Origin: Alphaproteobacteria bacterium
Lineage (GTDB): Bacteria; Pseudomonadota; Alphaproteobacteria; UBA828
Length of the DNA: 64,000 nucleotides
NCBI GenBank assembly: GCA_965214705.1
Contig: CBDCCI010000002.1
Span: 1,280,001-1,344,000 of the forward strand
Reading direction: 5' to 3'
Shown here: positions 22,381 through 42,318 of the stretch, piece by piece
Numbering within the stretch: position 1 is the stretch's first letter
Layout: each line of letters opens with the position of its first letter
Translations under genes and position numbers: made by a program
Notes under the pieces: generated by a model
Databases searched by the model: none
What the model saw: only the letters and a program-made list of their open reading frames with translations
Told to the model about the DNA's origin: nothing

Positions 22381-22461
22381 AACCGCCGCTCAGCGCCTGT
22401 GGCTTCCTCGCCGGAGCGAACGCGCGTGTCCGACGAATCCCCGGTGTAGCCCGTTGTAGCA

Positions 22462-24777
22462 CTACAGCCATCCCCGCTCGCGGAATGCGTCGAGATCCAC
22501 GCCGGGCGGCGCGTACCAGCCATCCGTCCCGTATCGGGCGCCCATGCTGAAAGCCACCTTCTTGTTCCCGTACGGAATCCGAAGCGGCGTCGGCGAGTTT
22601 GCCTTCGCCTGAGGCGCACCGGCCGAAAGTTCGGTCCGGACACGCTTCGACCCGGACGCCAGACGCGATCCCGTCGCTTTCGGCCTCTCCGTGCCCCGCT
22701 TGGCGCTCCCCGCCTTGCGCGGCTTCTCCTCCCGTGACGCGACGCGGCCAATCCCGCCGCCCGAATTCGCTTCCTCCCTCTGCCCGGCGTTTCGCTTGGG
22801 CGCATGTTCGTCGAGGAACGCCCGGCAGAGCGCCGCCGACTTCGTGTACCCGGTCGGCGGCTTGATCCCCTTGCTCTTCGCGATCGACGCCGCGAACTTC
22901 CGCATCTTCGCCGTTGGCGGACGGTCGCTGCCGCCGTCGGCTTCGCCGAGAAACACGCCCTCTGCATCGGCGCCGCGCTCCCCGAGCCGGCCGATGATGC
23001 GCCGGGCCGAATCGCACACCGCGTCGATCGCCCCCGCCATCTCCTGCCGGCCGGTCAGCACATCGTCGAGCAGGCACTCCAGCTCCGCCGTCACGCCCGG
23101 ATCCACCAGCGCGGGATCGGCGCGCTTCAGCACGCCGAACAGCGCGAGGCCCCGCTCGGTGGGCATGACGTTCTTTCCCTGCGCCGTCAGGAACCCCTGC
23201 TTCTTCAGGCCCGAGATGATCTCCGCCCGCGTCGCCGGCGTGCCGATCCCCTTGGCCTCCTTCAGACGCTCTCGCAGCGCCTCGTCCTCGACGAAGCGCC
23301 AGGCGTTCTGCATCGCCTCGATCAGCGTGCCCTCCCGGTAGCGCGGCGGAGGGCGCGTCTCCTTGTCCTCGATCCCGGGATCGCGGAGACGTGCTGCCTC
23401 CCCGTCCCGCAGGGGCGGCAGTGCCTGTGCCGCCTCGCCCTTCTCCTCGTCGGGCCGCCAGTCCGGAAAGGCGCCGCGCCAGCCGGCTTCGATGGGCTGG
23501 CGCCCCGTCGCCCGGAACTCGAATCCCCGCACGTCCATCGTCACCGTGGTCTGCCGGTAGCGGTAGTCCGGCATGACCGAGGCCAGGTAGGACCGCGCGA
23601 CCGCGTCGAACAGTTTCTTCTCGTCTGCCGTGAGTCGCGGCCAGACCTCGCGCAGGTCGCCGATCCTGTTCACGTTGGGGACGATCGCGTGATGGCTCGC
23701 GCCCTCCAGCCCCTTGTCGTGGAAGGCGCCGTTCCGGCCCTTGCGGATCACTGGCGGCGACGGCACCGGAATGTCCGCATAAGCCCGGCCCGCGCGCAGA
23801 CCCGCAACGATCCTCGGCACGTCCGCGGCAGCGCTCTCCGGCAGGTAGCGCACCTCGGCGCGGGGGTAGGTCAGGATCTTCTTGCCTTCCCCGTCGTAGA
23901 GCTCCTGCGCCACCTCCAGCGTCTTCGACGCCGTCCAGCCGAAGCGCGAGCTGCACAGCTTCTGAAGCGAGGGCAGGTCGTGCAGACGCGGCGGACGCTG
24001 GCGCTTGTCCTCGACGCGGACGCCAAGCGGCCCTTCGAATTCCCGCGCCGCCTCGGCGACCGCCTCCGCCTTCGCGCGCTCGACGATGCGCTCCTTCGGC
24101 GCGTGCCGCATCCTGAACGCGCCGCCTTCGGCGTGTGCCGTCGCCACCACCTCGAAATACCCCACCGGCACGAAGTCCCGGATCTCCAGCTCCCGCCGGC
24201 AGGCGATCGCCAGCGTCGGCGTCTTGACCCGGCCGATCCCGATCACACCCCGCGAGCCTCGGCCCAGCGTCACCGTCGCGGTGCGGGTGAGCGACAGGTT
24301 GTAGATCTGATCCGCCTGCCGGCGTGCCACCGCCGCCTCGTAAAGCCGCGCGTGCTCGCCGTTCGGGCGGGCGCGCCGGAACGCCGCGCGGATGGTCTCC
24401 GCGTCCTGCGCCGTGAACAGCACCCTCAGCACCTCGCCCCGGTAGCGGCAGTGCTCCAGGATTTCCTGGCCGATCAGCTGCCCCTCGCGGTCGCAGTCCG
24501 TTGCGAGCCACACCCGGCCGGCCGTCTTCAGCGCGGCCCGGATGGCCTTCAGCTTCGCCGCCTTGTTGCCGCCGGTGGCGGGCTTGGTGCCGTAGAGCCC
24601 GTCCGGTTTCAGCAATGCCGTCGACCAGCGCTTCCAGGCCGGGTTCACGTCCTCCGGCTCGCACAGGTCCAGCAGGTGGCCCTCCGCCGCGAGAACCGTG
24701 CCGTAGCGCGAGCCCACGGCGGCCCGCACGTCCTTCGCCTGGCTCGCCTTCTCGGTGATGACGATCTGGCGCGTCAC
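22462..24777 (-). CDS. topB: type IA DNA topoisomerase (Topo III-like) with small C-terminal domain
   Basis: IVITEKASQA, EGHL, ATDCDREG, GRVKTPTL, QELY..ILTYPR (catalytic Tyr), GIGTPATRA. The C-terminus LRIPYGNK..GARY..GWY.PPG is DUF5710-like. Confidence 0.9.
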   Translation of the reverse strand: MTRQIVITEKASQAKDVRAAVGSRYGTVLAAEGHLLDLCEPEDVNPAWKRWSTALLKPDGLYGTKPATGGNKAAKLKAIRAALKTAGRVWLATDCDREGQLIGQEILEHCRYRGEVLRVLFTAQDAETIRAAFRRARPNGEHARLYEAAVARRQADQIYNLSLTRTATVTLGRGSRGVIGIGRVKTPTLAIACRRELEIRDFVPVGYFEVVATAHAEGGAFRMRHAPKERIVERAKAEAVAEAAREFEGPLGVRVEDKRQRPPRLHDLPSLQKLCSSRFGWTASKTLEVAQELYDGEGKKILTYPRAEVRYLPESAAADVPRIVAGLRAGRAYADIPVPSPPVIRKGRNGAFHDKGLEGASHHAIVPNVNRIGDLREVWPRLTADEKKLFDAVARSYLASVMPDYRYRQTTVTMDVRGFEFRATGRQPIEAGWRGAFPDWRPDEEKGEAAQALPPLRDGEAARLRDPGIEDKETRPPPRYREGTLIEAMQNAWRFVEDEALRERLKEAKGIGTPATRAEIISGLKKQGFLTAQGKNVMPTERGLALFGVLKRADPALVDPGVTAELECLLDDVLTGRQEMAGAIDAVCDSARRIIGRLGERGADAEGVFLGEADGGSDRPPTAKMRKFAASIAKSKGIKPPTGYTKSAALCRAFLDEHAPKRNAGQREEANSGGGIGRVASREEKPRKAGSAKRGTERPKATGSRLASGSKRVRTELSAGAPQAKANSPTPLRIPYGNKKVAFSMGARYGTDGWYAPPGVDLDAFRERGWL

Positions 24778-26630
24778 GGCGGGCCCTCATGCGTGCCTCC
24801 GCCTCCGTCGCCCTCTGCCGGCGCGGCCGCGATGGCGGCCAGGAACGGCACGGCGAACTCCTTCAGCTTGGCCGCGCCCACGCCGTTGACCTCGGCGAAC
24901 TCCGCCTCGGTGCGCGGCCGGCGGCGCACCATGTCGATCAGCGTCCGGTCCGGGAACACGATATAGGCCGGCACGCTCCGCTCCCGCGCGATCTCCAGGC
25001 GCAGCGCCTTCAGAGTGCCCAGCAGCGCCGTGTCCTCGCCGCCCAGGGCAGGCTCCCCGGCATCGCCGCGGGCCGCGCCGGAGTCCCGGGCCTTCGCGGG
25101 CGTGCGCGCGATGACCGTGTCCTCGCGGTAGAGGAACTCGCCGTCGCCGCGCAGCAGGCCGAGCCCCTTCTCCGTGATCCCGATCCCGCCGTAGCCCCCG
25201 ATGTCGATCCGCAGGAACCCCGTCGCCACCATCTGGCGGATCAGCGAGCGCCACTCGTTCTTGCCGCGCTCCGCGCCCACCCCGAAGGTCGGTATCCGGT
25301 CGTGGCCGAAGCGCGCGATCTTGTCCGTTCCGGTCCCCCGCAGGATGTCGATCAGGTGCGCGGCCCCGAAACGCTGGCCCGACCGGTAGGCCGCCGAGAG
25401 GATCTTCCGCGCGTCCTCGGTCCCGTCGACGCGCTCCGACGGATCGAGGCAGACGTCGCAGTTGCCGCACGGCTCGATCCGCTCCCCGAAATACTCCAGC
25501 AGCGCCACACGCCGGCAGGCCGGCGCCTCGCAATAGCCCAGCAGGGCATCGAGGCGCTTGTGCTCCCGGCGCTTGCGCTCCGGCCCGGCGTCCTCGTCCT
25601 CGATGAACTGCCGTCGCATCCTGATGTCGTCGAGGCCGTAGAGCATGTGCGCCTCGGCCGGAGCGCCGTCGCGGCCCGCCCGGCCGATCTCCTGGTAGTA
25701 GGCCTCGACGCTGCCCGGCAGATCGGTGTGGAAGACGTAGCGCACGTCCGCCTTGTCGATCCCCATGCCGAAGGCGATGGTGGCGACGATCGCCACGCCC
25801 GGCTCTGTCATGAATATGTTCTGGTGGGCTTCCCGATCTTCCTTCTCCATGCCGGCGTGGTAGGGGAGCGCGCGCACCCCCTCCGCCGCCAGCATGGCGG
25901 CCGTCTCCTCGGTCTTGCGCCGCGACAGGCAGTAGACGATGCCGCTTTCACCCTCGTGGCGGGAGATGAAGCTGCCGAGCTGGCGCTTCCAGTCGCGCTT
26001 CATCTCCACTGCAAGCTTGATATTTGGACGGTCGAAGCCGAGCACGAACTGCTCGGCCCGTCCGCCGAACAGCTTGTCCACGATGTCGTTCCGGGTCACC
26101 TCGTCGGCGGTCGCCGTCAGCGCCGCGATGGGGACGCCGGGGAAGAGCTCGCGCAGCCGGCGGAGGTCCTCGTATTCGGGCCTGAAGGCCGGGCCCCACT
26201 GCGAGATGCAGTGGGCCTCGTCGATGGCGAAGAGCCTGACCGGAAGGCGGGCGAGCGCCGCCAGCATGCGCTCGGTCATCAGCCGCTCGGGCGCCATGTA
26301 GAGAAGCCGCGTCCGCCCCTCCGCCGCCCGGCGCCAGGCCGCGACGTTGGCGCCCCGGTCGTTCGCGGAGTTGATGCAGTCGGCCGCGACGCCCGCCAGC
26401 CGGAGCGCGGACACCTGGTCCTGCATCAGGGCGATCAGGGGGGACACCACCACCGTGAGCCCGTCCATGACCAGGGCGGGGATCTGGAAGCAGAGCGACT
26501 TGCCCGAGCCCGTCGGCATCACGGTGAGCGCATGGCGGCCGTCGAGGAGCGCTTCGATCACGGACTCCTGGCCGGGGCGGAACGCCTGGAAGCCGAAGAC
26601 CTTCCGCAGCGACCCGTGTGCCGCTTTCAA
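24774..26630 (-). CDS. recQ: ATP-dependent DNA helicase RecQ
   Basis: FRPGQE, MPTGSGKS, DEAHCISQWG, LTATA, QEIGRAGRDG, Zn-binding CRR..CGNCDVC, RQC and HRDC (PAYIVFPD.TL). Start uncertain (TTG 26630; ORF open to 26858). Confidence 0.95.
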   Translation of the reverse strand: MKAAHGSLRKVFGFQAFRPGQESVIEALLDGRHALTVMPTGSGKSLCFQIPALVMDGLTVVVSPLIALMQDQVSALRLAGVAADCINSANDRGANVAAWRRAAEGRTRLLYMAPERLMTERMLAALARLPVRLFAIDEAHCISQWGPAFRPEYEDLRRLRELFPGVPIAALTATADEVTRNDIVDKLFGGRAEQFVLGFDRPNIKLAVEMKRDWKRQLGSFISRHEGESGIVYCLSRRKTEETAAMLAAEGVRALPYHAGMEKEDREAHQNIFMTEPGVAIVATIAFGMGIDKADVRYVFHTDLPGSVEAYYQEIGRAGRDGAPAEAHMLYGLDDIRMRRQFIEDEDAGPERKRREHKRLDALLGYCEAPACRRVALLEYFGERIEPCGNCDVCLDPSERVDGTEDARKILSAAYRSGQRFGAAHLIDILRGTGTDKIARFGHDRIPTFGVGAERGKNEWRSLIRQMVATGFLRIDIGGYGGIGITEKGLGLLRGDGEFLYREDTVIARTPAKARDSGAARGDAGEPALGGEDTALLGTLKALRLEIARERSVPAYIVFPDRTLIDMVRRRPRTEAEFAEVNGVGAAKLKEFAVPFLAAIAAAPAEGDGGGGTHEGPP

Positions 26631-27166
26631 CGCACTGCCTGCCGCGCCCGGCCACTGCGCGGCTTCCCCCGATGGCGCTTCCGTCGAGTGACTCGACCGC
26701 CCCGGCGGTTGGCTTCCTTCGAGCGCTTCAAACCGCCGGTACGCCCGCTCCATCAGGCGAGGACCCAACGCCATCCCGGCACATCGTCCCCGCCAGACTG
26801 CCCTGCAGTCCGCCGTCCCGCAGCACTTCGCCGCCCATCCCGAGTTGTCGAACCCCAACCCGCACGATCGTCCGGTTGATGAAGAAATCCGCTATCCGCG
26901 ACCCGGCGAGTCATGGAGGACTCGTACCACGAATCGGCCCGCTCGAACGACTACCGAGAAACCCCGCCGCGGCGAGTCGCTGACGAGTTGCGGGGCACCC
27001 CCCGAGCCGGAATCGACCGGCATCGGGATCGCGCGCAAACCCTCAGTTGCCGCGCGCCGCAGGGGCGCGCCAGCAATCTTTGTGCGAAGTGCGGCGCCTG
27101 GCCGGGCGCCGCCGCGGCTTCAGTCCGGACCAGGAAATGGTGCTGGCCGGCGGCGCCCGAGAGCGC

Positions 27167-28854
<1,688 letters not shown>

Positions 28855-30705
28855 CAGGACTATCCCACGCTCCCCAAATGCGGACGATCTGGGCCGCGTT
28901 CGGGCGATTTCGGGTGTTGCGGCTCCCGCGCGATAGCCCGATTCGCAGGCTCACGGCTCTCGGTTCGGGCGAGACGTTGGCTTGGCCGCAATGAACGTCA
29001 GTGCTGACAGCTGAGCGGTGACGAGGTTGCACACCGCCATTGTCTGCCGTCCGGATCGGACGGCGTGGTGGCGCTCAGGGGGAAAGGATCGCGGCGAAGG
29101 CGTCCTCGCGCTGGAGCGCGAAGTGGCGGGTTGCCGAGGCGACGCTGTCGAAGTCGGTTTTGTGGATGATGAGCGCGATCGCGATGTTGGTGCAGAGCGC
29201 GTTGTTCTCGGGCGCGAAGCCGGTGCGCGCGAGGCACGCGTCCTCGTCGAAGAGCTTGTCCCTGACGTGGTGGTTGACCTCGACCGACCAGTGGCCGCGG
29301 TTCCAGGCGAGAAGGTCCTTTGGCGAGGCGCGCTCTGCCGGCACCGAGGTGATGCCGTAGGCGTGCTCGATGCTGGTCTCGCCTGTGCCGTTGCGCCGTG
29401 CGTCGGTGCGCTTGCGGGTGACACGGAAGATCTGCGCGACATGAGGATAGTTGATCAGGCCTGGAAGCGGGGTCAGGGTCTCGATGCGGCGTTGTTCGAT
29501 GCGGCCATGGGCCTTGGCGACATCTTCCTCGAAGTGTCCGCTCGCGTCGCGCTCCCAGTCGATGGAGGCGAGGGTCTCGCAGGTCTCGGGCGCGTTTTCC
29601 TTGACCGTCATGAGATAGTCGGCGCCGTGGGTTTCCTTGATGGTGCGCGCGGTGTCGCGGGTGGTGTCGCGGGTGGTGTCGCGGGTGGTGTCGCGGGTGG
29701 TGTCGCGGGTGGTGTCGCGGGTGGTGTCGCGGGTGGTGTCGCGGGTGGTGTCGCGGGTGGTGTGAAGCGCGTCGATGGTGATCACGCGGCCTTCGACGGG
29801 AACCTCGTCGAGCAGCGCGCACACGGCCGCGATCTCGCCGCCTGAGTCGTTGAAGGCGAGGCTTGCGAGCGGCGCGCCGGTTGCGTGGTCGACCAGGGTC
29901 GCGGTCTCGTGGTGGCCCTCGCCGTTGCGGTTGGCGCCGCGAATGCGCTTGCCGTCGAGCGCGATCGCACGGCCAAGGTTAAGTCTCGGCATCGAGAAGC
30001 GTTGCAGCGCCGCCTCGATCTGCTCGGGGTCGAGGGAGGCGATGACCCGGTGCAGGGTCGACTTCGAGACCGGCACGTAGAGGCCGGTCTTCGGGTTCTT
30101 CCAGGCGCCGAGCGCTTCCAGTTCCCGCTGCGCCAGCTTGCTCGCATACTCGGCGGCGGCGACGGGACCGCGCATGTTGGCGAGCCTTGCGAGGATATAG
30201 ACCGCGAGCGTGGTTGCGACGCTGTGCTTGCGCCCCTGGCCGCGCCGGAAGTCCTCGATCCCGTCGAGTTCCTGGTAGAGCGAGCGCAGTTCGCTCGGCG
30301 CCCTGCCGGCGTGGCCCTTGGGCTCCCAGCTTGCGGGCAGCGGGCGGGGCGCGCTGAGCCGCCGGCGGGCATCGCGGCGCAGGGGATAGACATAGAGCCG
30401 CTTGGGCTCGCCGTGGGGGTCGGTGTAGCGGCCGTTGTGGCGGGCAAAGCCCCTGGTGTCGCCGAGATAATGCCAGTTGGCGGCCTCGTAGATCGTGCCC
30501 TCGAAGAGCGCCGGGTTCACGAAGGTCTCCGCGATCAGAATCGGATGCCCATAACAGGACTGCCAGTCGTCGCCGAGGCGGCGCAGCATCGCGGCGATCG
30601 CGAACGAGGCAAGACACGGAAAGACGCGCTTCGCGCCGAGGATGACGAAGCGGGTGTTGTTCGCGATCAGATGCAGGCGCTGGAACTGCTGCGCCGCCGA
30701 CCACC
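28855..30705 (-). mobile_element. ISAs1-family element, left copy (5'-truncated; transposase with DUF4338/DruA-like N-terminal part)
   Basis: End CAGGACTATCCC at 28855. Transposase 29075-30705 has IALDGK.IRG, ITIDALH, VKEN, RGHWSVEVNHHVRD..F.ED; the upstream part has NNTRF.IL, ETFV, GTIYEAANW..LG.TRG. Confidence 0.85.
29651..29762. repeat. 12-bp tandem repeat x9 (GGTGTCGCGGGT), encodes (TTRD)9
   Basis: Visible directly; the right ISAs1 copy has a single unit. Confidence 0.95.
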
Positions 30706-32022
30706 CGACGGGATCGAGGACTTCCGGCGCGGCCAGGGGCGCAAGCACAGCGTCGCAACCACGCTCGCGGTCTATATCCTCGCAAGGCTCGCCAACATGC
30801 GCGGTCCCGTCGCCGCCGCCGAGTATGCGAGCAAGCTGGCGCAGCGGGAACTGGAAGCGCTCGGCGCCTGGAAGAACCCGAAGACCGGCCTCTACGTGCC
30901 GGTCTCGAAGTCGACCCTGCACCGGGTCATCGCCTCCCTCGACCCCGAGCAGATCGAGGCGGCGCTGCAACGCTTCTCGATGCCGAGACTGAACCTTGGC
31001 CGTGCGATCGCGCTCGACGGCAAGCGCATTCGCGGCGCCAACCGCAACGGCGAGGGCCACCACGAGACCGCGACCCTGGTCGACCACGCAACCGGCGCGC
31101 CGCTCGCAAGCCTCGCCTTCAACGACTCAGGCGGCGAGATCGCGGCCGTGTGCGCGCTGCTCGACGAGGTTCCCGTCGAAGGCCGCGTGATCACCATCGA
31201 CGCGCTTCACACCACCCGCGACACCGCGCGCACCATCAAGGAAACCCACGGCGCCGACTATCTCATTGACGGTCAAGGAAAACGCGCCCGAGACCTGCGA
31301 GACCCTCGCCTCCATCGACTGGGAGCGCGACGCGAGCGGACACTTCGAGGAAGATGTCGCCAAGGCCCATGGCCGCATCGAGCAACGCCGCATCGAGACC
31401 CTGACCCCGCTTCCAGGCCTGATCAACTATCCTCATGTCGCGCAGATCTTCCGTGTCACCCGCAAGCGCACCGACGCACGGCGCAACGGCACAGGCGAGA
31501 CCAGCATCGAGCACGCCTACGGCATCACCTCGGTGCCGGCAGAGCGCGCCTCGCCAAAGGACCTTCTCGCCTGGAACCGCGGCCACTGGTCGGTCGAGGT
31601 CAACCACCACGTCAGGGACAAGCTCTTCGACGAGGACGCGTGCCTCGCGCGCACCGGCTTCGCGCCCGAGAACAACGCGCTCTGCACCAACATCGCGATC
31701 GCGCTCATCATCCACAAGACCGACTTCGACAGCGTCGCCTCGGCAACCCGCCACTTCGCGCTCCAGCGCGAGGACGCCTTCGCCGCGATCCTTTCCCCCT
31801 GAGCGCCACCACGCCGTCCGATCCGGACGGCAGACAATGGCGGTGTGCAACCTCGTCACCGCTCAGCTGTCAGCACTGACGTTCATTGCGGCCAAGCCAA
31901 CGTCTCGCCCGAACCGAGAGCCGTGAGCCTGCGAATCGGGCTATCGCGCGGGAGCCGCAACACCCGAAATCGCCCGAACGCGGCCCAGATCGTCCGCATT
32001 TGGGGAGCGTGGGATAGTCCTG
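30706..32022 (+). mobile_element. ISAs1-family element, right copy (inverted, 5'-truncated, frameshifted)
   Basis: Near-identical reverse complement of 28855-30266; 1-bp insertion at ~31267 (CTCATTGAC); ends GGGATAGTCCTG at 32022. Confidence 0.85.
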
Positions 32023-32121
32023 ACACTGCGGATGCACGGGCTACCGCTAAGCCTACGTCGCGGATATGATCGCCTGCCGGCTCCCAGGGCTCCGGCTACC
32101 CTGACCATCGAGCAAGCGGGC

Positions 32122-34857
32122 ATGGCGTCGAGGAAGCACAGCCGCAAGGGGCGCAGGCGCAAGCGGCCTGGCAAGGTCACCGCCGTCCAGCAGCTGAATC
32201 AGGCCCGTCGGCGGCTGGCCAGCGGGGACGCCCGCGGCGCCCTCGATCTCCTGAAGCGGGTGCCGGACGGGGAGCACGACCCGGCGGGCAAGGCGTGCCT
32301 GCACTTCTGCGCCTTGACGCAGTGGGCCCGTCAACTGGCGCGGAGAGGTCAGAAGAAGGAGTCGGCCGCCATGCGCGCGCGGGCCGCCGAACAGCGGTCA
32401 TCCATCCCTGCCGGGGCGCTGGGGGAGGAGGATCTGGTGTGCTACCTCCGCCATCTTGATCCTGGCGAGGCGGTCGCAACCTACGCGGCATACCTGAAGG
32501 GGGGATCGCCGATCGCCGGGGCTGAGCGCCTGCTCGCCGACAGGCTGGTGACCCGGCGGTGCTGGGCGAGTCTGGACGCCCTCGATGCGAGCCATGCGCT
32601 TCGCCGCGACGCGGATCACGTCATGCGCGGCCTCGACGCGATGGACGCGGGAGAGTGGGAGCGTGCGGCGGATCTGCTGCGCGGGCTGCACCGGCGCTCG
32701 CCGTTCGCGGCCTGGCGCGTGTTCTGCAAGGCGATGGCGTGTTTCGGTGCCGGCGACGACGAGGGCCTGCGCCGGGCGGCGGACCTTCTGCCCGGGGAGT
32801 TCGCGCTTGCCGGCATCGTCGCCGAGTTGCGGCGGGCTGGCGGGGGCGGGGGCAAGGGCGGCTCGTCCAGGGTTCAGCGGGCCCTGGGGACGGACGGCAC
32901 GACGGTCTCGGAGCTGGGCGCGGAGTTGCGCCAGGCTCTTCGCAGGAACGAGCGCGAGCGGGTCATCGAGCGACTGATGAGCCGCCTGGCCGATGCACTC
33001 AGCCCCGACGATCCCCTGCCGGCGCTTGTCGATCTGGTGCAGATTGCGGGCTTGGCCACCGCGCGCAGCCACCTCTCCATGGGCGCAGTGGAGCGGCTGG
33101 CACAGCACCTTCTGCCGGCCAGGCGGGTTCCGGGCCTGATCGCCAGGATCGGGTTGGTTCTTCAGCAGGCCTCCCTGGGCGCATGGAACCCCGGGGCGGC
33201 GGGATCCCTGCTGGGCCGCCTTCGCGAGGAGTTCCCCCGGTCCGGGGATCATGCTCTGGTTCGGGGCCGCGTATACGAGGCGCTGGCGAGGATCGGACAT
33301 CGGAGCGTGCAGCCGGAGCTGCTGCCGACCCCGAAGGTGCGGGAGCTGATCCTGCTTCTCGATGGGCGGTCCTTCGAGGCCGGGACGGTGTTTGCCGATC
33401 TGATGCAGGAGAGCCTGCTGGCCGATCCCGGCAACCGCGACGGCTATCGCTTCCTGGCGGAGCTGTTGCGGGGCCGCAGGCAGGACAGGAACCGTCTGCG
33501 GCGGGTGCTGGAGGACACGGCGGCCCGATTTCCCGAGGATGCTGAGCCCTGGCTTGAGTTGACCGAGCTTCACTACGCCGGCAATGCGTACCGGCGGGCG
33601 GAGGAGGCTCTTGCCGAGGCCCGGCGGCGCGCTCCGCATGACGAGCGCATCGTTGGCCTGCAGGCCGTGGGCTTCCTCAAGTCATCGGACCAGAGCCGCA
33701 AGAGCGGACGGTTCGAGCTGGCGGCCCGGGATTTGCAGCGGGCCGAGGCGCTGGGGGGCTCCCGGCTGACAGACATCGTGCCGGTGAAGAGGCTTCTGCT
33801 GGACCTGGTGTCGTCGGGCGGGGATGCCGCCGCGGTCGTGGCTCCCCGTCTTTCCGCCCTGCCTCCTGCTGGGCAGATCAGGACTCTGGCGCTGTTGCTT
33901 CACGAGCTGGAAGCGAACAGCACCGTCAAGAACGTCACGCCCGAGATGACGCATGCCGTGCTAGGTCTTCTGGCTCTCAGGGCGCCCATGATCGATGACA
34001 TCGATGCGGAGGAGGCGGTCGGTCTTCTCGCTCCGCTTCCTGCGGATTTTGGGATCCTATACGGGCGTCTCCATGTCGCCCCGGTCCTGGCCGACTGGTG
34101 GAGCGCGATCATGCGCGGCCAGCGGGACGACGGCCTGCTGGATGTCTTCGACATCCTGATGGACTGCGGCGACCGGGCTGCTGTGCGGGCCGAGATCGGG
34201 CTTCGCCTGGCCGGAACGAGCAAGGCGGAGCGGGATCCGTTGCTGCTCCTGTACCTTGCGGCGATCCGCTACCAGGAAGGTGACGACGACGATTCCAGGC
34301 GCTTCGTTGAGGCGCTGCAATCGGCAGCCCCGACCGAGCGCGAGCGGCTCCGGGCGGGAGCCGGGCGGCTTGCCCGGGTCACCGCGGGCATCCTGCGCGA
34401 GGCGCTTCACACATTCGACTTCGGGCTTCTGGACCCGCCCGAGCCGCTGTTCGGCGGGGACGATCCGGGACCGCTCTCGAACCTGCTGGGCGATATGCTG
34501 GGACCCGAGGAAGAGCCGTCCGGCGAAGAGCCGTCTCTCGACGCGTTCCTGGATGCGCTGCGAGTCGGCCTGCAGGCGGGATTGCCGGGCCAGCCCTGCC
34601 AGACCTCGTTGTTCGACGACGACGAGGCGTCACGCGAGCTGGAGACGCTGGAAGGCTTGATCGACCGGCACTGGCTGCGCGGGGTTCCCTCTCCGCTGCT
34701 GAGGGAGGTGGCGGAGGTGGCCAGGGCGGAGCCTGAGATTCGGCACAACCTGGACCGCAGCGCCCGCACGTGCGAGGAGGCGGGGCTTCGCGGCGGGCTG
34801 AGCCGGGAGGCGCGCATCTTCCTCTTTCCCCGCAAGCAGGGTCGCCGGAGGGCGTAG
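32122..34857 (+). CDS. large helical/TPR-like hypothetical protein (first gene of Hsp70 cassette)
   Basis: Basic N-terminus MASRKHSRKGRRRK; TPR-like segments (RFPEDAEPWLELTELHYAGNAYRRAEEALAEARRRAPHD); acidic C-terminal linker. Confidence 0.8.
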   Translation: MASRKHSRKGRRRKRPGKVTAVQQLNQARRRLASGDARGALDLLKRVPDGEHDPAGKACLHFCALTQWARQLARRGQKKESAAMRARAAEQRSSIPAGALGEEDLVCYLRHLDPGEAVATYAAYLKGGSPIAGAERLLADRLVTRRCWASLDALDASHALRRDADHVMRGLDAMDAGEWERAADLLRGLHRRSPFAAWRVFCKAMACFGAGDDEGLRRAADLLPGEFALAGIVAELRRAGGGGGKGGSSRVQRALGTDGTTVSELGAELRQALRRNERERVIERLMSRLADALSPDDPLPALVDLVQIAGLATARSHLSMGAVERLAQHLLPARRVPGLIARIGLVLQQASLGAWNPGAAGSLLGRLREEFPRSGDHALVRGRVYEALARIGHRSVQPELLPTPKVRELILLLDGRSFEAGTVFADLMQESLLADPGNRDGYRFLAELLRGRRQDRNRLRRVLEDTAARFPEDAEPWLELTELHYAGNAYRRAEEALAEARRRAPHDERIVGLQAVGFLKSSDQSRKSGRFELAARDLQRAEALGGSRLTDIVPVKRLLLDLVSSGGDAAAVVAPRLSALPPAGQIRTLALLLHELEANSTVKNVTPEMTHAVLGLLALRAPMIDDIDAEEAVGLLAPLPADFGILYGRLHVAPVLADWWSAIMRGQRDDGLLDVFDILMDCGDRAAVRAEIGLRLAGTSKAERDPLLLLYLAAIRYQEGDDDDSRRFVEALQSAAPTERERLRAGAGRLARVTAGILREALHTFDFGLLDPPEPLFGGDDPGPLSNLLGDMLGPEEEPSGEEPSLDAFLDALRVGLQAGLPGQPCQTSLFDDDEASRELETLEGLIDRHWLRGVPSPLLREVAEVARAEPEIRHNLDRSARTCEEAGLRGGLSREARIFLFPRKQGRRRA

Positions 34858-34860
34858 GCG

Positions 34861-35166
34861 ATGCTGGCTCACTATCTTGCTCTGGGGCTTTCCTCCTCCG
34901 CCTCGCGGGAGGAGGTTCGCCGGCGCTACCTCGAGCTGATCCGGGCGCATCCGCCGAGCCGGGAGCCGGCGTACAGCGAGCGGATCGTGGCCGCCTACGA
35001 AGCCCTGAAGGACGATCGCTCGCGCGTGGAGACGGCGATGTTCGGGATGTCCCGGCACGGCGATTTCGAGCTGGCTCTGGACGCGCTGGTGCAGGCGCGG
35101 CCACGCGGGCGTGCCACCCCGGGCCTGCAGGCGCTGATTGCGGCGGAAGGCGCAGAGGATGAGTGA
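34861..35166 (+). CDS. J-domain-like protein (HPP variant)
   Basis: HYLALGL..SAS.EEVRRRY.ELIR.HPP....I.AAYE.L.D. Confidence 0.85.
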   Translation: MLAHYLALGLSSSASREEVRRRYLELIRAHPPSREPAYSERIVAAYEALKDDRSRVETAMFGMSRHGDFELALDALVQARPRGRATPGLQALIAAEGAEDE

Positions 35167-35826
35167 GCCTGACAACGACTGGAAGCGCCGCGCCCTGGAG
35201 GATTTCGGGCACTGGCTCGACGAACTGGAGGAGGAGGACAGCGGCGACGGCGGGACCGGTATAGCGCCGGAGCCAGATCTGCGCGAATTGTTCGCCGAGC
35301 TTGCGGCGCTGCGCCAGGAGGTCCGGCTGCAAAACCGCGAGCAGTCGAAGGCGGGCCGGGAGCTTGCCCAGGCGGCGGCACGCTACGACGGCGCTGCGGC
35401 GTTGATGAAGCGCCGCGAGGACGACCTGGCGGCATTCGAGACGCGGGTCTCGCGCGAGGCCGAGAACCGCTGCCTGCGCTCTGCTCTCGAGGTGCGCAAC
35501 GCCCTGGTCCGGGGCTTGGAGGCAGCGACGGTGCTGCGCGAACGCCCCGGCTTGTTCCGCCGCCCGCCGCGGGGTATCCGCGGCGTCGCCGAGGGCTACG
35601 AGATCGCACTCAGGCGTTTCGACCGGATGCTGTCCGGGTTCGGGGTCGAGCGCCTGCGGACCGCAGGCCAGCCGTTCGATGCGCGCACCATGCACGCGGC
35701 GGAGGTCCGCCGGGTCGCGGGGGTCGGGAGCGGCATGGTGGTCGAGGAGCTGCTCAGCGGCTACACCCGGGGCGGCGACATTCTGCGCCTCGCCGAGGTG
35801 GCCGTGAACCGCAACGAGAGGCAGGA

Positions 35827-35830
<4 letters not shown>
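35159..35830 (+). CDS. grpE: GrpE-family nucleotide exchange factor
   Basis: Coiled-coil N-terminus; G.PFD...MHA...G.VVEE...GY..G..ILRLAEVAV C-terminus. Confidence 0.85.
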
Positions 35831-37605
<1,775 letters not shown>

Positions 37606-37892
37606 GCCGGTGCTCAACTGCCCGACCTGCGGCGCCAGGGGGATCGAGGGCCCATCTTGCCACCGCTGCCGGACCGACCTGCGCCAGGTGCTGGCCGTCG
37701 AGCAGGCCGCTGCACAGTGCCGGCGCCGCGCGGCGGCCGCCCTCGCAAGCGGCTGCGTCGACCGGGCGCGCGCCCTTGCGGACAGGGCCTGCGCACTCCA
37801 CCGTAAGCGGTATCGGGCCCCCATACTTCCAGCGGATCTGATTTCGGGGCTGACTCTCCGCCTTGACCACGAGCCACACAGGAGAGATCGCG

Positions 37893-38318
37893 ATGACAGA
37901 TTCGATTTTGGCATCTGGCGACGGTGTCGCTGTTGCTTCGGTTGAGATCCCAGCTTCTGAGGGAGCCGCCCCGGCTCCGTCTGAGCCGGCCCCCATGCGA
38001 CGCTGGCCGGACGATGAGAAGGCGCGGATTGTCTCGGAGAGCTTTGAGCCGGGCTCTTCGGTTGCGGCGGTCGCGCGCCGCCATGGCGTCAGCGATACGA
38101 CCCTGACCAAGTGGCGGCGGCGCGCGCGGGAGGGAACTCTTCCGGGCGCTCGGATTGGTGGCTCTGCACCGCCATTTGTTCCCGTGGTGGTTGATAGCGT
38201 GACGTCCGAGCGGACGGTGGCGATCGAGGCGCTAGGCGTGGTCGTTCGCCTTCCGGTGGAGAGCGCGGTCGATCGGATTGTTGCGGTGGCCTCGGGCCTG
38301 GGCCGGGCGTCGTCATGA
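37893..38318 (+). CDS. tnpA: IS66 accessory protein TnpA
   Basis: RRWPDDEKARIVSES..PGSSVAAVARRHGV....L.KWRR. Confidence 0.9.
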   Translation: MTDSILASGDGVAVASVEIPASEGAAPAPSEPAPMRRWPDDEKARIVSESFEPGSSVAAVARRHGVSDTTLTKWRRRAREGTLPGARIGGSAPPFVPVVVDSVTSERTVAIEALGVVVRLPVESAVDRIVAVASGLGRASS

Positions 38319-38665
38319 TCGCGGCCCCCTCGCTTCGCATCGTGTTGGCGACGCGGCCGGTTGATTTTCGTCGCGGCCACGACGCGCTTGCGGCGACGGC
38401 GGCGGGGGAGCTGGACCTCGATATCTATTCCGGGGTGATCGTGATCTTCCGCTCGCGCCGCGGCGACAGGCTCAAGCTCCTTGCGTGGGACGGCAGCGGT
38501 CTGGTGATGACCTACAAGCGTCTGGAGCAGGGCCGCTTCGCCTGGCCTCGGATCGAGGATGGTGTGATGCGCCTTACGAAGGGCCAGTTCGAGGCCCTCT
38601 TCGAGGGTCTGGACTGGCGCCGGGTGAAGGCCCGCCCGGTTCGCCGCCCGCTGGCGGCGGAGTGA
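38315..38665 (+). CDS. tnpB: IS66 accessory protein TnpB
   Basis: PVDFRRGHD.L, FRSRRGDRLKLL.WDGSGL....KRLE.G.F.WP. Confidence 0.95.
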   Translation: MIAAPSLRIVLATRPVDFRRGHDALAATAAGELDLDIYSGVIVIFRSRRGDRLKLLAWDGSGLVMTYKRLEQGRFAWPRIEDGVMRLTKGQFEALFEGLDWRRVKARPVRRPLAAE

Positions 38666-38758
38666 GGCGGCACGCAGGCGGGGCCGCAGATTTCGGTCGC
38701 GGTCCCGCCTGCACTTTTCCCTGGTCATGCATTGGCGAATCGGATTAAGGGGTGGCCC

Positions 38759-40474
38759 ATGCCGAAGGTCACGCCCTCACCCCTCAGCAGCGCCGGTTCG
38801 CCGTCGCCTGCGGTGGTTTCGGCGGCGCTGGCGGCCCTGCATGCGGAGCTTGACGACGAGCGCGCGGCGCGCCGGGCGACGGAAGCAGCCCTATGCGAAG
38901 CGGAGCAGGCACGCGGCGCGGCGGAGGCGGCGAGGCAGACGGCGGAAGCGCGGGCGGCACGGCTGGAGGCCGAGAACGCGCAGAGCGCGGAGCAGATCAG
39001 CCGGCTTGAGCATCTCAACAAGGAGCTCAGGAAGGCGCTGTTCGGTCCGCGCTCCGAGAAGCTCGGCGAGGACGAGCGCCAGCTTACGTTCGAGGAGTTT
39101 TGGGCGGCGATCGCTGAAGCCGGCGGTCGGCCCGAGGCAGATGACCAGGAGCAGGACGAGGGGGCTGGCGGCAAGCGCCGGCGGCGCTCTTCCCGGGGGT
39201 CGCGCAGCGGGGTGCGCTTCGGGCCCCAGGTCGACCGGCGCGAGGAGGTGATCGAGCCGGACACGATCATGTGCCCCTGCGGCTGCGGCGAGATGACGAA
39301 GATCGGCGAGGACCGCAGCGAGCGGCTGGACTATGAGCCGGCGAAGTTCACCGTCATCGAGACCGTGCGCCCCCGCTACGCCTGCAACAAGTGCAAGGGG
39401 GGCGGGGTGGTGCAGTCGCCGGCGCCGGCCGCTCTGGTCGAGGGCGGCCTTCCCACCGAGGCTCTTCTGGCGCAGGTGCTGATCGCGAAGTACGGCGATC
39501 ATTGCCCGCTCTATCGCCAGTCGCAGATCTACGAGCGCTCGGGGATCGAGGTTCACCGTGCGACGCTGGCGACGTGGGTGGGCCAGGCGTCGTTTCACCT
39601 GCGCCCCGTGGTCGCTTGCCTGGAGGATGAGCTGAAGAAGTCGGATCACCTGGGTCTGGACGAGACCACGATCCGCGTTCTCGACCCGGGCCGGGGCAAG
39701 ACGAAGACGGGCTACATGTGGACCCTTGTGCGTGACGAGCGCCACTGGAGCGGCACGGACCCGCCGGGCGTCGTCTATCGCTATGCGCCCGGCCGCGGCG
39801 GCAAGTATGGCGCCGAGCTTATGGAGGGCTTTTCGGGGACGGTGCAGCTCGACGGCTACTCGGGCCACAACATCCTGGCGCGGCCGTACCGGGCGGAAGG
39901 CCCTGTGACGCGGGCCCTCTGTTGGGCGCATGTAAGACGGAAGCTGAAAGAGGTATACGACTCGAGCGCATCGCCGATCGCGCTGGCCGGTCTGAATCGG
40001 ATCGCGAAGCTCTATGCGATCGAGAAGAAGATCCGGGGCAAGCCGCCGGCGGAGCGCCGCGCGATCCGTTGGGAGGAGTCGGCGCCGATCGTGAACACCT
40101 TCGGTGTCTGGCTCGACGAGCAGCGCTCGCGCGTCTCACCGCGCTCGCGTCTCGGCGAGAAGCTGACCTATATCGCCAACCAGTGGGACGGGCTGCTGGA
40201 GTTCCTGCACGACGGTCGTGTCGAGATCGACTCGAACCTGGTGGAAAACCGAATCCGGCCGCTGAAGCTCACCGCCAAGAACGCGCTCTTCGCCGGCAAC
40301 GACGAGGGTGCGCAAGCCTGGGCCCGCATCGCCTCGCTGATCGAGACCTGCAAGATGAACGGCGTCGAGCCCTACGCCTGGATGCGGAGCACGCTCGAGA
40401 AGATCGCCAAGGGCCACCCGCAGTCGGGCATCCAGGAGCTTCTGCCGTGGAACTTCCAGCCCGAGGCAAAATGA
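38759..40474 (+). CDS. tnpC: IS66 DDE transposase TnpC
   Basis: LFGPRSEKL, CPCGC..IGED.SE.L, KYGDH.PLYRQ, DETT, DGYSG, CWAH.RRK, IDSN.VEN.IRP; start approximate. Confidence 0.95.
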   Translation: MPKVTPSPLSSAGSPSPAVVSAALAALHAELDDERAARRATEAALCEAEQARGAAEAARQTAEARAARLEAENAQSAEQISRLEHLNKELRKALFGPRSEKLGEDERQLTFEEFWAAIAEAGGRPEADDQEQDEGAGGKRRRRSSRGSRSGVRFGPQVDRREEVIEPDTIMCPCGCGEMTKIGEDRSERLDYEPAKFTVIETVRPRYACNKCKGGGVVQSPAPAALVEGGLPTEALLAQVLIAKYGDHCPLYRQSQIYERSGIEVHRATLATWVGQASFHLRPVVACLEDELKKSDHLGLDETTIRVLDPGRGKTKTGYMWTLVRDERHWSGTDPPGVVYRYAPGRGGKYGAELMEGFSGTVQLDGYSGHNILARPYRAEGPVTRALCWAHVRRKLKEVYDSSASPIALAGLNRIAKLYAIEKKIRGKPPAERRAIRWEESAPIVNTFGVWLDEQRSRVSPRSRLGEKLTYIANQWDGLLEFLHDGRVEIDSNLVENRIRPLKLTAKNALFAGNDEGAQAWARIASLIETCKMNGVEPYAWMRSTLEKIAKGHPQSGIQELLPWNFQPEAK

Positions 40475-41028
40475 CTCGCGCGCTCACGGCGCTCCTCAAG
40501 AAATCCCCGTCGTAGTCAAGCCAGATTCCGGTATGGGGTCTGCGTACCGCTTACACTCCACCGCTGCCATGCGTCCGTTTCCGTGCGCGCCGCGGTCGCG
40601 CTCGTCGATGGCGAGTTTGACCTGGCCCTCCGTCTGTGGCGGGAGGTCCGAAGCGGGCCGCCGGACAACCCCGCTCCGGCGAACGCACGCGCTTCTATCG
40701 CTCCCTCGCCCGCCGTTCCACGAAACTGAGTGCCGCGCAGGCGATGAGTCCGGAGCGGGATACCCCCTCCCGCAATGCGGCTTCGTCAATGATCGCAAGC
40801 AGGCGCGATGGCACCGAGAGCTGCCCAGCGCGTGGGACGGCTCACCGATCCCTTGCTCCGAAGGGCGTATACGAGAGGCGATCGTGCACTCGGCCGCGAG
40901 AGGGCATCCTCCCGGAGACCGGCGTCGCGGAGTTGGCCGGCGTGACCGGCAGGGCCGGACCACGACGACCCAGGATCGAGTTGCGAGGGAGAGCGCTGGG
41001 CGAAAACTAATTGCTTGCCGGCCGCGTC

Positions 41029-42318
41029 TCAGCCAGACCCGGCGCCGACTGAAATCCCATCCTGTTCGGCGGTGCCCTCCGGCGCTTGGCTCATCAGTGC
41101 CTCTATCCGATCGGCAACCCTTTGAGCCGGCTCTCGGAGCTGGGCGATCGTCCAGTCCGCAGCGTAACCCTCCGTCACGTCGTTGGGTCTGGCGTGGTTC
41201 ACAAGGCGCTTGGTCAACGGCGAGGGAAGCATCAAGTCCCGTTCGGCCACCGTGATGAAGCAGTTGCGGAACGCATGGAACCAGAACTTCGCACCGCCCG
41301 TCTTCGTGATGCGCGGGTAAAGATAGTGCGGGTCCTCGACATGCCCGGACTTGCTGGCCGGAGAAGGGAATACCCAGTCCCGCACGGTGACCGGCATCGC
41401 CGACCTCGCCGCCCGACGCCTCTCAAGGATAAGTTCCAGTTGTCGGGTGATCGGAAGCTCAAGAGGGACTCGGGTCTTGGTCTGCTCGACGCGGAAGGTG
41501 AGCGACGCCATGTCTACTCGCTCCCAGCGTAGTGTCAGGACTTCTCTCAGCCGCATGCCGGTGTAAAGCCCGAACCACAGCGCGTCACTCATGGCCGGCA
41601 TCTTGACCTCGGCCTCGATGCCGGTTCGCCAACAGGGCAGCACCTCGGCGGGCGTGGAGATCTTGCGTCGCGTCTTGCGATGGAACTTCCCGCCTGCGGC
41701 GAGCCAGAGGTCGACCGGGTTGCGCAGACCTTCGAGATCGACGCACGGACGGCGGAAGACGGAACGCAGCAGAGACATCGCGTGGTTGGCCGGTGACCAG
41801 CCGTGGTCCACGGTAATGCGGTTGAAGCGCGCCTCCACCTCGCGCCGTGTGATGGAATCGAGTGGGCGGATGAGCCAGTCACCGAGATAGCGCTCGGCCT
41901 CGTAGCGGTAGAGCTTGTTGGTGTTCTCGGAGCGGTTGGGATTGGCAGCCAGGTAGTCCTTGAGCGCATCCGCCAGGGTCGGCATCCCTCGCGCCTGCGA
42001 ACGTTCCTCAGCCGGGTCCTCGCCGCTGGCTACTTTGCCGAGGGTGGTCTGGGCAAGGCGCCTGGCCTGACCGGGCGCGATCTTGCCATATCGACCGAGC
42101 ACGACCTGCTTGTTCGGCGCCTTCCTGCCGCCGTCACCCGCACGGTAGTTGACGATGAAGGACTTGGCGCCGGTGGGGTGCACCCTGACGCCGAAGCCGG
42201 TGAGCCTGTCATCCCACGCGATCCAGGGCTTGTCGCCGGGCTTGAGGGCATCGACGGCACGCTTGTTGATGGTAATCTTGGTCTTGGCGACACGTTTTCC
42301 GGGCTTCGTCGTCTTCAT
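41029..42318 (-). CDS. tyrosine recombinase/integrase with N-terminal arm-binding domain
   Basis: WDDRLTGFGVRV..G.KSF arm domain; catalytic R (TGMR), K (TKT), HxxR (FHAFR), H (VNH), Y (VTEGY). Confidence 0.95.
   Translation of the reverse strand: MKTTKPGKRVAKTKITINKRAVDALKPGDKPWIAWDDRLTGFGVRVHPTGAKSFIVNYRAGDGGRKAPNKQVVLGRYGKIAPGQARRLAQTTLGKVASGEDPAEERSQARGMPTLADALKDYLAANPNRSENTNKLYRYEAERYLGDWLIRPLDSITRREVEARFNRITVDHGWSPANHAMSLLRSVFRRPCVDLEGLRNPVDLWLAAGGKFHRKTRRKISTPAEVLPCWRTGIEAEVKMPAMSDALWFGLYTGMRLREVLTLRWERVDMASLTFRVEQTKTRVPLELPITRQLELILERRRAARSAMPVTVRDWVFPSPASKSGHVEDPHYLYPRITKTGGAKFWFHAFRNCFITVAERDLMLPSPLTKRLVNHARPNDVTEGYAADWTIAQLREPAQRVADRIEALMSQAPEGTAEQDGISVGAGSG

Follow-up and report, generated by a model that had tools for sequence, protein, structure and literature searches.

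Bacterial Hsp70 biology rests on DnaK, HscA and, barely, HscC. The locus described here raises the question of what a bacterial Hsp70 may do when it is encoded together with a J-like protein, a GrpE-family protein and two partners of no known chaperone family. It lies in a 64,000-nucleotide stretch of the genome of an Alphaproteobacteria bacterium (GenBank assembly GCA_965214705.1, contig CBDCCI010000002.1, positions 1,280,001 to 1,344,000; the whole stretch is referred to as the window, and the genome as G000). Five co-oriented genes, referred to as G1 to G5 and collectively as the cassette, occupy positions 32122–40729 of the window. A preliminary description had taken them for a private chaperone machine with its own nucleotide-exchange factor, carried on a mobile element and possibly acting as a stress or anti-phage module. 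We lean, with modest confidence, towards the first part of this proposal, namely that the five genes form one operon for a private, specialised Hsp70 machine, built around a tetratricopeptide repeat (TPR) scaffold.

A conserved set of five genes

The five frames have a third-position G+C of 0.82–0.89, and the same gene order recurs in 61 of 72 related loci, which together place the set beyond chance. The spacing of the genes in the window is as described earlier (3, -8, -4 and +4 nt, from the open reading frame (ORF) coordinates), and the identities first given to their products (a TPR-like protein of about 910 aa, a J-like protein, a GrpE, an Hsp70 and a CxxC/helical protein) are borne out by family matches, a fold model and alignments. 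The ORF of G1 opens at 32032, and the ATG at 32122 gives an N-terminus (M-A-S-x-K...RKRKR) that is common to 19 of 19 related loci compared. No sigma-70-like promoter or terminator was found in the interval 31800–32200.

The 72 loci come from a scan in which each of 185,579 species was represented by one genome, and are found in metagenome-assembled genomes (MAGs) of Pseudomonadota, Acidobacteriota (Vicinamibacterales), Latescibacterota, Binatota, Spirochaetota and Planctomycetota. Among the 11 loci counted as incomplete, seven run into contig ends (L008, L015, L022, L051, L060, L068 and L070), L073 is a fragment, and L057 breaks after G1, departing from its twin L056 just before the end of that gene; the remaining two (L078 and L079) are distant Planctomycetota loci, in which the full set is visible by direct reading or with Planctomycete queries. 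Over 57 loci the median intergenic gaps are 12, -8, -1 and 5 nt. Five further Planctomycetota loci keep the gene order at identities of about 45% for G4 and about 30% for G1. In this phylum about 8 of 301 genomes have a G1-like match, and five of these loci were examined: all five genes were found in L099, L100 and L101, G2–G5 plus a separate G1 match in L102, and G1–G4 in L098, where G5 was not detected. The partners are thus conserved with the Hsp70, as the gene-neighbourhood search suggested in the preliminary description was meant to establish, and the notion of a self-contained unit that brings its own GrpE-family protein (G3) holds across these loci.

The phylogeny of G1 largely follows the bacterial phyla, with six changes of phylum label against a minimum of five and one clear cross-phylum placement (Binatota inside Gammaproteobacteria). 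Within the class of G000 itself, G1 was found in none of 400 other genomes, including three of the same family. The cassette is therefore accessory within its class, and its distribution is very patchy.

Two proteins, each a single cluster, were considered as fusions of neighbouring cassette genes. In P0053 (G1–G2) the stop codon of G1 is lost behind a changed tail, and in P0271 (G4–G5) the LFYLE end of G4 is replaced by out-of-frame residues. Both were rejected as Rosetta-stone evidence because they look like frameshift or read-through products. In a model of P0053 built from a mixed alignment, the C-terminal part of G1 and the linker have a predicted local distance difference test score (pLDDT) of only 27–50, and no docking of the J fold could be read from it.

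The Hsp70 and its four partners

G4 matches the Pfam HSP70 family with 468.8 bits and, in an alignment with the DnaK of G000 and with DnaK, HscA and HscC of Escherichia coli, keeps the phosphate-binding and adenosine motifs. In the same alignment a 22-residue block is missing from the N-terminal ATPase lobe, where E. coli HscC has its own gap, and the beta-sandwich is extended by 8 residues inserted beside the insertion of HscC. The reported combination of intact ATPase motifs with a missing subdomain-IB insert is therefore confirmed, and the peptides quoted for its diverged linker and substrate-binding loops (AVLVDITPYTFG and FFTVFAEQ) and the LDEILFYLE end are all present in the G4 translation. 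Over 46 sequences, L588 and F589 of this C-terminus are invariant, and conservation reaches at least 90% at E586, I587, Y590, L591 and E592. With the DnaK of its own genome G4 has 41% identity, and it falls below the NCBIfam equivalog cut-offs both for DnaK (NF001413, 498.4 bits vs. 648; TIGR02350, 492.8 vs. 822.55) and for HscA (TIGR01991, 397 vs. 708.55).

To place G4 among Hsp70s, we searched 1.84 billion cluster representatives, which returned 11,625 proteins at E ≤ 1e-30. A FastTree phylogeny of 125 rows (those of the best 150 hits that are full length, together with cassette Hsp70s, the E. coli proteins DnaK, HscA and HscC, and the DnaK of G000) puts G4 on a side of 75 rows; a branch with a support of 100 divides these from the other 50, among which are DnaK, HscA and HscC. 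The smallest clade with both the window G4 and a Planctomycete G4 comprises 48 rows. In an IQ-TREE phylogeny under a site-heterogeneous model (43 rows), DnaK and HscA are again split off with a support of 100, and HscC-type rows stand on the cassette side as a separate subclade. G4 has a clade of its own, with a Shimodaira–Hasegawa-like approximate likelihood ratio test (SH-aLRT) support of 87–89, and E. coli HscC lies outside it. A C-terminal motif of the LFYLE type occurs in 32 of 37 library representatives of the 48-row clade; on the DnaK/HscA/HscC side the figure is 1 of 46, and for the remaining representatives 7 of 27. Because G4 is below the equivalog cut-offs and is split off with full support in both trees, its sequence identifies it as neither DnaK nor HscA, and the phylogeny upholds the earlier view that it is not a canonical DnaK.

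G4 shares the hallmarks of HscC-type Hsp70s, namely the deletion of the block corresponding to DnaK residues 76–101 and an insertion of 4–8 residues in loop L1,2. It departs from that type in its GrpE partner, since each complete locus has a GrpE-family gene that runs into the start of G4. SglK/GrpS of Myxococcus xanthus was considered as a relative and set aside: SglK is of the PRK00290 (DnaK) type according to a passage of PMC8265645, and G4 is below the cut-off of NF001413 (PRK00290.1).

The largest protein, G1, has a match to the Pfam family TPR_19 (34.2 bits vs. a cut-off of 25, residues 461–515), and its AlphaFold2 model consists of helices only (mean pLDDT 83.4), apart from the basic ends and an acidic linker (about residues 773–832), which are disordered. 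Both the match to a TPR model and the helical-hairpin solenoid fold qualify it as a TPR protein. A Foldseek search with the whole protein gave 47 matches at E ≤ 0.001, led by the TPR scaffolds Ski3, Ctr9, Naa15 and IFT-A at template modelling (TM) scores of 0.1–0.22; as judged from the model, this likeness to eukaryotic scaffolds is generic for TPR folds. The protein collection holds 191 relatives at E ≤ 1e-3, of which the 120 listed are 48–100% identical over nearly the full length, and no informative name occurs among the matches listed. In the ESM Atlas both G1 and G5 fall only among unnamed or TPR clusters. No enzymatic domain was found in G1 by Pfam, in the AlphaFold2 model or by Foldseek. 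Both ends of the chain carry recognisable sequences: a basic N-terminus (M-A-S-G-K..R-K-R-K-R), and a C-terminus of the form [ST]-[PR]-E-x-x-hydrophobic-hydrophobic-L-F-[PA]-[RH] followed by a Lys/Arg tail, in which L901 is present in 46, E896 in 44 and F902 in 42 of 46 sequences. Four relatives of 989–1001 aa (P0095, P0101, P0113 and P0118) contain an extra Gly/Arg-rich, low-complexity insert within the disordered acidic linker before the C-terminal domain.

G2 scores 26.9 bits against the Pfam DnaJ family, just below the gathering cut-off of 27.8, and the G2 region of the read-through protein P0053 has four J-like helices in the model. At the position of the His-Pro-Asp (HPD) motif, 70 sequences have H in 62 cases, then P (41) or R (29), then P (67), V (2) or T (1), so that the Asp of the motif occurs in none of them; the Planctomycete form reads F-P-P-D. 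Pfam and the column counts likewise gave no HPD and no zinc-finger/C-terminal client-binding domain of DnaJ in G2. The designation as a J-like protein is thus right as to the fold, and does not extend to a classical J-domain. The HPD motif is held indispensable for triggering Hsp70, and a protein of this sequence would be unable to act in the textbook way.

G3 is a member of the GrpE family by Pfam (62.6 bits vs. a cut-off of 25.8, profile positions 12–164 of 165), and is far below all NCBIfam GrpE equivalog cut-offs (best 31.5 vs. 184). G5 has no firm Pfam match. Its four zinc-ribbon cysteines are invariant in 27 of 27 aligned sequences, and its family profile gives weak matches to TPR domains of solved structures, the best being SGT1 (E 0.0056).

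Copies, mobility and surroundings in the genome

The features of the window that bear on the cassette are collected in Table 1. The G5 of the window is interrupted by an IS66-family insertion sequence (IS), the genes of which match HTH_Tnp_1, TnpB_IS66 and DDE_Tnp_IS66 (Pfam). The element has inverted ends at 37803–37826 and 40531–40554, and is flanked by an 8-bp target duplication (ACTCCACC) at 37795–37802 and 40555–40562. The intact G5 in a second cassette copy of the same genome (L006:9126–9485, minus strand) corresponds exactly to the 119 aa obtained when the window pieces are joined without the element and one repeat, and we conclude that the window's G5 is inactivated by the insertion. 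The IS66 element is massively expanded in G000, with 33 full-length copies, 30 of them at least 99.6% identical (including that of the window), and 24 partial matches.

Table 1. Coordinates of the cassette genes and of the adjoining mobile elements in the window.
Feature	Coordinates	Strand	Description
G1	32122–34857	+	911 aa, all-helical TPR solenoid; basic disordered N-terminal tail, basic C-terminal tail
G2	34861–35166	+	101-aa J-fold protein, H-P-P instead of HPD, then conserved 40-aa tail
G3	35159–35830	+	223-aa GrpE-family nucleotide-exchange factor paralogue
G4	35827–37605	+	592-aa non-canonical Hsp70, GTG start, ends LDEILFYLE
G5, 5' part	37610–37802	+	Zinc ribbon (CPxC...CxxC) and beginning of helical part
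G5, 3' part	40563–40729	+	TPR-like helical hairpin and variable tail
IS66-family element splitting G5	37803–40554	+	2752 bp; tnpA 37863–38318, tnpB 38315–38665, transposase 38732–40474
Tyrosine integrase	41029–42318	-	Arm-DNA-bind_3 and Phage_integrase; local context, outside the conserved set
IS-like element	28855–32022	not assigned	Abuts left end of repeated cassette segment; DDE_Tnp_1 ORF 29075–31087 (-); local context

G000 (7.92 Mb in three contigs) contains three copies of the cassette, of which that of the window is referred to as copy 1. Copy 2 is 99.97% identical to it, free of the IS, and adjoins the same integrase (100% identical), whereas copy 3 has 96.9% identity; both hold the five genes at full length. 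The ratio of nonsynonymous to synonymous substitution rates (dN/dS) between copies 1 and 3 is 0.18–0.54 for G1–G4, a sign in these sequences that the paralogous copies are under purifying selection. The sequence shared by the three copies is confined to the cassette with about 100 bp of upstream and at least 184 bp of downstream DNA, the alignment starting at 32022–32034, and the ends of the repeated unit showed no convincing terminal inverted repeats. Multiple copies occur in at least three genomes, the others being a Vicinamibacterales MAG with five full copies (94–99.8% identity across about 6.2 kb) besides a degraded copy and a fragment, and a Gammaproteobacteria MAG with two. L069 (in the same MAG as L027) is a degraded cassette, in which G1 is broken by about 1.9 kb of foreign DNA and G3 and G4 lie in several frames.

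The proposed location on a mobile element is correct for this genome, where the cassette, with a tyrosine integrase and IS elements beside it and in three copies, belongs to the accessory cargo of an island that has many integrases and IS elements. It does not carry over to the family as a whole. The integrase has weak matches (25% identity) in only 2 of the 72 related loci and is therefore not conserved with the cassette, the G1 tree follows the phyla, and in eight Vicinamibacterales loci the cassette stands at the same chromosomal position, behind a DegT aminotransferase, suggesting vertical inheritance. Mobility is thus a local feature, not the general state of the cassette. Neither the IMG/VR viral contigs (57 pattern matches, none confirmed) nor 72,556 plasmids contained a relative of G1. 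Clustering of 546 flanking ORFs, from loci with both G1 and G5, revealed no family of neighbours conserved beyond single lineages; the commonest, an ABC ATPase, occurs in 12 loci at varying distance, and 25 cluster representatives have Pfam matches to ordinary metabolism, transport or mobile genes.

Contigs at least 88% alike cover all 30 bins of the window in two runs labelled as sponge metagenome and one labelled as coral metagenome, from three studies. Together with the absence of G1 from the 400 genomes of the class, this hints at a role tied to a host-associated lifestyle. In the RNA-seq library X20, contigs 88–99% alike were found in 23 of the 30 bins; as they may derive from DNA and carry no information on strand or level, they are not evidence of transcription, and no meaning attaches to the 7 uncovered bins.

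Several other observations concern the surroundings of the cassette. The ends of the IS-like element to its left (28855–29667 and 31209–32022) are inverted copies of about 814 bp that enclose a 670-aa ORF with DDE_Tnp_1 and a weak DruA-like N-terminal part, and several copies of the element exist in G000. Island-type genes at 21706–29032 encode an S24 peptidase, a Topo III-like protein, a RecQ-like helicase and a full-length RpoD-like sigma-70, and the Topo III/RecQ pair recurs at two other sites of G000 with 89–93% identity. A BCCT transporter ORF (17583–18800, minus strand) covers only profile positions 117–485 of 485 and is probably truncated at the N-terminus. Behind G5, the 184 bp at 40730–40913 are what is left, at the 3' side, of a convergent ORF of 154 aa that has a weak NikA-like match (E 2.4e-4); this ORF is whole behind copy 3 (L007:12818–13282, minus strand), where an IS4-like transposase follows. 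The size of G000 (7.9 Mb) compares with 3.3–4.1 Mb in three genomes of the same family, and its contamination estimate of 8.72% may reflect duplicated DNA.

Competing explanations and related systems

In the private machine that we favour, G4 would cycle ATP with G3 as its private nucleotide-exchange factor, which might allow the set to work in unrelated hosts. Judging from its sequence, G2 would position or tether the Hsp70 rather than act as the classical ATPase trigger, or would trigger it by a non-canonical contact. The solenoid of G1 may be a dedicated adaptor or client that touches the substrate-binding/lid half of G4, and G5 a small regulatory or capping subunit. Hydrophobic segments with basic residues are of the kind bound by the Hsp70 groove (as in DnaK binding motifs), and IscU presents LPPVK to HscA; by analogy, the hydrophobic-L-F motif of the G1 C-terminus with its basic tail is a candidate contact. 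No effector domain (nuclease, protease, NADase, pore or other) was found in the cassette by Pfam, in the G1 model or by Foldseek, and the output would consequently have to lie in the use of ATP to hold, assemble or disassemble G1 or the proteins that it binds.

The preliminary description had also proposed the TPR-like and/or the Zn-ribbon protein as a client or adaptor of the Hsp70. The complex of G1 (residues 248–911) with the substrate-binding/lid half of G4 (residues 365–592) was predicted from alignments of 46 rows each in matched order. The prediction lends weak support to contact between G1 and this half of G4: it scored 0.44 (runs 0.44, 0.49 and 0.44), whereas the highest of three controls stood at 0.00. 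At least 21% of the contacts are common to the runs, and the pLDDT of the partner is at least 66, without a defined interface. Of 157 solved complexes 116 attain the mark applied, as do 2 of 215 mismatched pairs, and passes at 0.60 or lower comprise 18 of the 157 solved complexes and both of the passing mismatches.

Several points weigh against the private machine. By the calibration of the prediction method, a G1–G4 score of this size is more often wrong than right unless the pair is likely beforehand. The absence of the HPD Asp from G2 leaves the ATPase trigger unexplained, and the LFYLE motif of G4 may be merely the core of the last lid helix. The placement of HscC depends on the tree, FastTree grouping it with DnaK and HscA and IQ-TREE with the cassette side, and the only two fusion-like proteins that were found (P0053 and P0271, above) resemble read-through or frameshift products. 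We regard as rather improbable a more far-reaching arrangement: a further bacterial Hsp70 system that dispenses with HPD, in which the TPR solenoid of some 900 residues would be an assembly platform anchored by its basic tails to a polyanionic structure (such as the ribosome or nucleoid), and G2 would recruit to it the Hsp70, which would then load, remodel or strip the bound proteins.

One competing explanation is general proteostasis, with the cassette as an additional, mobile Hsp70/GrpE set that would make its host more tolerant of heat, oxidants or other stress that damages proteins. Mobile heat-resistance islands do carry extra chaperones, the cassette has a complete Hsp70 and exchange factor, it is multi-copy in at least three genomes and it is accessory within its class. 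However, a search of the 72 regions upstream of G1 gave no site resembling the controlling inverted repeat of chaperone expression (CIRCE), sigma-32-like matches were found in 6 of these regions vs. a mean of 8.0 in shuffled sequence, and no Rfam thermometer or other RNA family was found at the cassette. The J-fold protein has neither HPD nor the DnaJ client-binding domain, two partners of no known chaperone family are strictly co-conserved, and the 8-residue insertion in the beta-sandwich of G4 argues for an altered client range; a role in general stress therefore seems unlikely to us. We give slightly less credence still to an anti-phage or other conflict module, in which the Hsp70/TPR machine would sense an invader protein and trigger a response, although it agrees with the position of the cassette among integrases and IS elements in G000 and with the conflict systems described in parts of Kaur et al. 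(2020, PMC7159879), which have HSP70, GrpE and DnaJ- or TPR-fused proteins. At E ≤ 0.001 the five proteins gave no match to the 5027 models of PADLOC-DB 2.0 (best E 0.0013 and 0.026), and there is neither an effector domain nor a conserved neighbour family, the ABC ATPase being found in 12 loci only and at varying distance. The co-location with defence islands that the preliminary description envisaged amounts to a family-specific defence-type gene within 5 kb in only 6 of 23 loci (132 flanking ORFs), a count without a background control: DarG (L016 and L017), a Cas4-Cas1 fusion (L032), SNF2 helicases of the DpdE/ZorD kind (L019 and L031) and an AbiL/AriA-like ATPase (L028), other defence-type matches in the flanks being generic methyltransferases or ABC-ATPases. 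The GTPase that defines the systems of Kaur et al. is not adjacent, the G1 tree follows the phyla, unlike fast-moving defence genes, and viral contigs and plasmids yielded no relatives, and the suggested sensor-effector role is not supported. As to the arrangement of individual loci, a cassette copy in a Vicinamibacterales MAG (L032:16107–18438) stands 281 bp before the Cas4-Cas1 fusion, the next ORF being Cas2-like by eye only, and in two Rhodobacterales MAG loci (e.g., L016:16478–17539) the cassette is about 600 bp before the DarG gene.

Two narrower readings are the least credible of those considered. The C-terminal peptide of G1 could dock on the beta sliding clamp, which would make the cassette a replication-linked chaperone: the clamp-binding pentapeptide has the consensus QL[SD]LF, G1 has hydrophobic-hydrophobic-L-F close to its chain end, and 1 of 46 sequences (L010) reads Q-I-L-L-F. 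The leading Gln is absent from the other 45, which have R, H, Y, A, E or N there and thus no clamp motif, and no replication gene is conserved beside the cassette, making this docking very improbable. We likewise place little belief in a function in the maintenance of the mobile element itself, whereby the cassette would serve the replication, integration or transposition of its island. The narrow segment shared by the three G000 copies, the same integrase beside copies 1 and 2, and the shared segment of only about 6.2 kb in the Vicinamibacterales MAG would fit such a function, but the integrase is scarcely found at other loci, the eight Vicinamibacterales loci keep one chromosomal position, and there are neither terminal inverted repeats nor viral or plasmid relatives. 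Each of these four readings (defence, general stress, clamp docking and element maintenance) is weaker than that of a private Hsp70 machine.

Whichever mechanism applies, the cassette is a well-defined and unstudied Hsp70 set of five proteins in a fixed order, ranging from Planctomycetota to Pseudomonadota. It offers a natural test of whether HPD is dispensable for driving an Hsp70, and of how bacterial Hsp70 clients can be specified by a TPR scaffold. As it is small (6.1 kb) and self-contained, and an IS-free copy exists in G000, heterologous reconstitution is practical. If the HPD-less platform were true, the cassette would be a bacterial counterpart of the eukaryotic TPR/Hsp70 co-chaperone networks, or of the uncoating of an alpha-solenoid coat by Hsc70 and auxilin, and its occurrence in unrelated lineages of symbionts would stem from a need common to that way of life.

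No description of the cassette was found by full-text searches of the literature; the broad phylogeny of Hsp70 and J-proteins by Barriot et al. (2020, J Mol Biol), as cited in a passage of Mayer (2021, PMC8215388), may classify its clade. The closest studied systems are HscC/DjlB/DjlC and HscA/HscB/IscU, and the closest theme from comparative genomics is the HSP70/GrpE variant of the GAP1-N2 systems. HscC (E. coli ybeT-ybeU-djlC-hscC) is, like G4, a specialised, non-housekeeping Hsp70, without the block corresponding to DnaK 76–101 and with an insertion in a beta-sandwich loop, as described in a section of Mayer (2021, PMC8215388). Dedicated J-type partners are encoded nearby, as in the cassette, and the E. 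coli locus also has a TPR-like (Sel1) gene. In IQ-TREE HscC is on the same side as the cassette, but G4 has its own clade, and FastTree puts HscC with DnaK and HscA. According to the same section of Mayer (2021, PMC8215388), HscC is inferred from sequence not to interact with GrpE, and both DjlB and DjlC belong to the J proteins with a tail anchor (membrane insertion being shown for DjlC). In contrast, the cassette always has a GrpE paralogue, its J-fold protein has 101 aa and no HPD, and the 911-aa solenoid and the zinc-ribbon protein are without counterpart in the HscC system.

The HscA-HscB-IscU system follows the same logic: the Hsp70 and the J protein are both dedicated, and a short motif is presented by a single client. 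It differs in that G4 is well below the HscA cut-off given above, no isc genes adjoin the cassette, and HscB keeps HPD. HscA is thought to need no exchange factor, as stated in a passage of Mayer (2021, PMC8215388). With DnaK-DnaJ-GrpE the cassette shares the same three folds and intact ATPase motifs, whereas G4 is distant from the DnaK of its own genome, no heat-shock sites were found, and two extra obligatory partners are present. The GAP1-N2 GTPase conflict systems similarly link Hsp70 and GrpE to proteins with DnaJ or TPR modules outside the housekeeping operon, and are defined by the GAP1-N2 GTPase and a protein with fibronectin type III (FNIII) repeats, according to sections of the paper by Kaur, Burroughs, Iyer and Aravind (2020, eLife; PMC7159879); both are absent from the five proteins, the window neighbours and the 25 recurrent flank families scanned. 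Finally, the eukaryotic TPR co-chaperones (Hop, CHIP and SGT1/SGTA) pair Hsp70 with TPR proteins, as the cassette does, and the best match of G5 is SGT1; the EEVD tail is absent from G4, which ends in LFYLE instead, and the likeness is of the kind generic for TPR folds.

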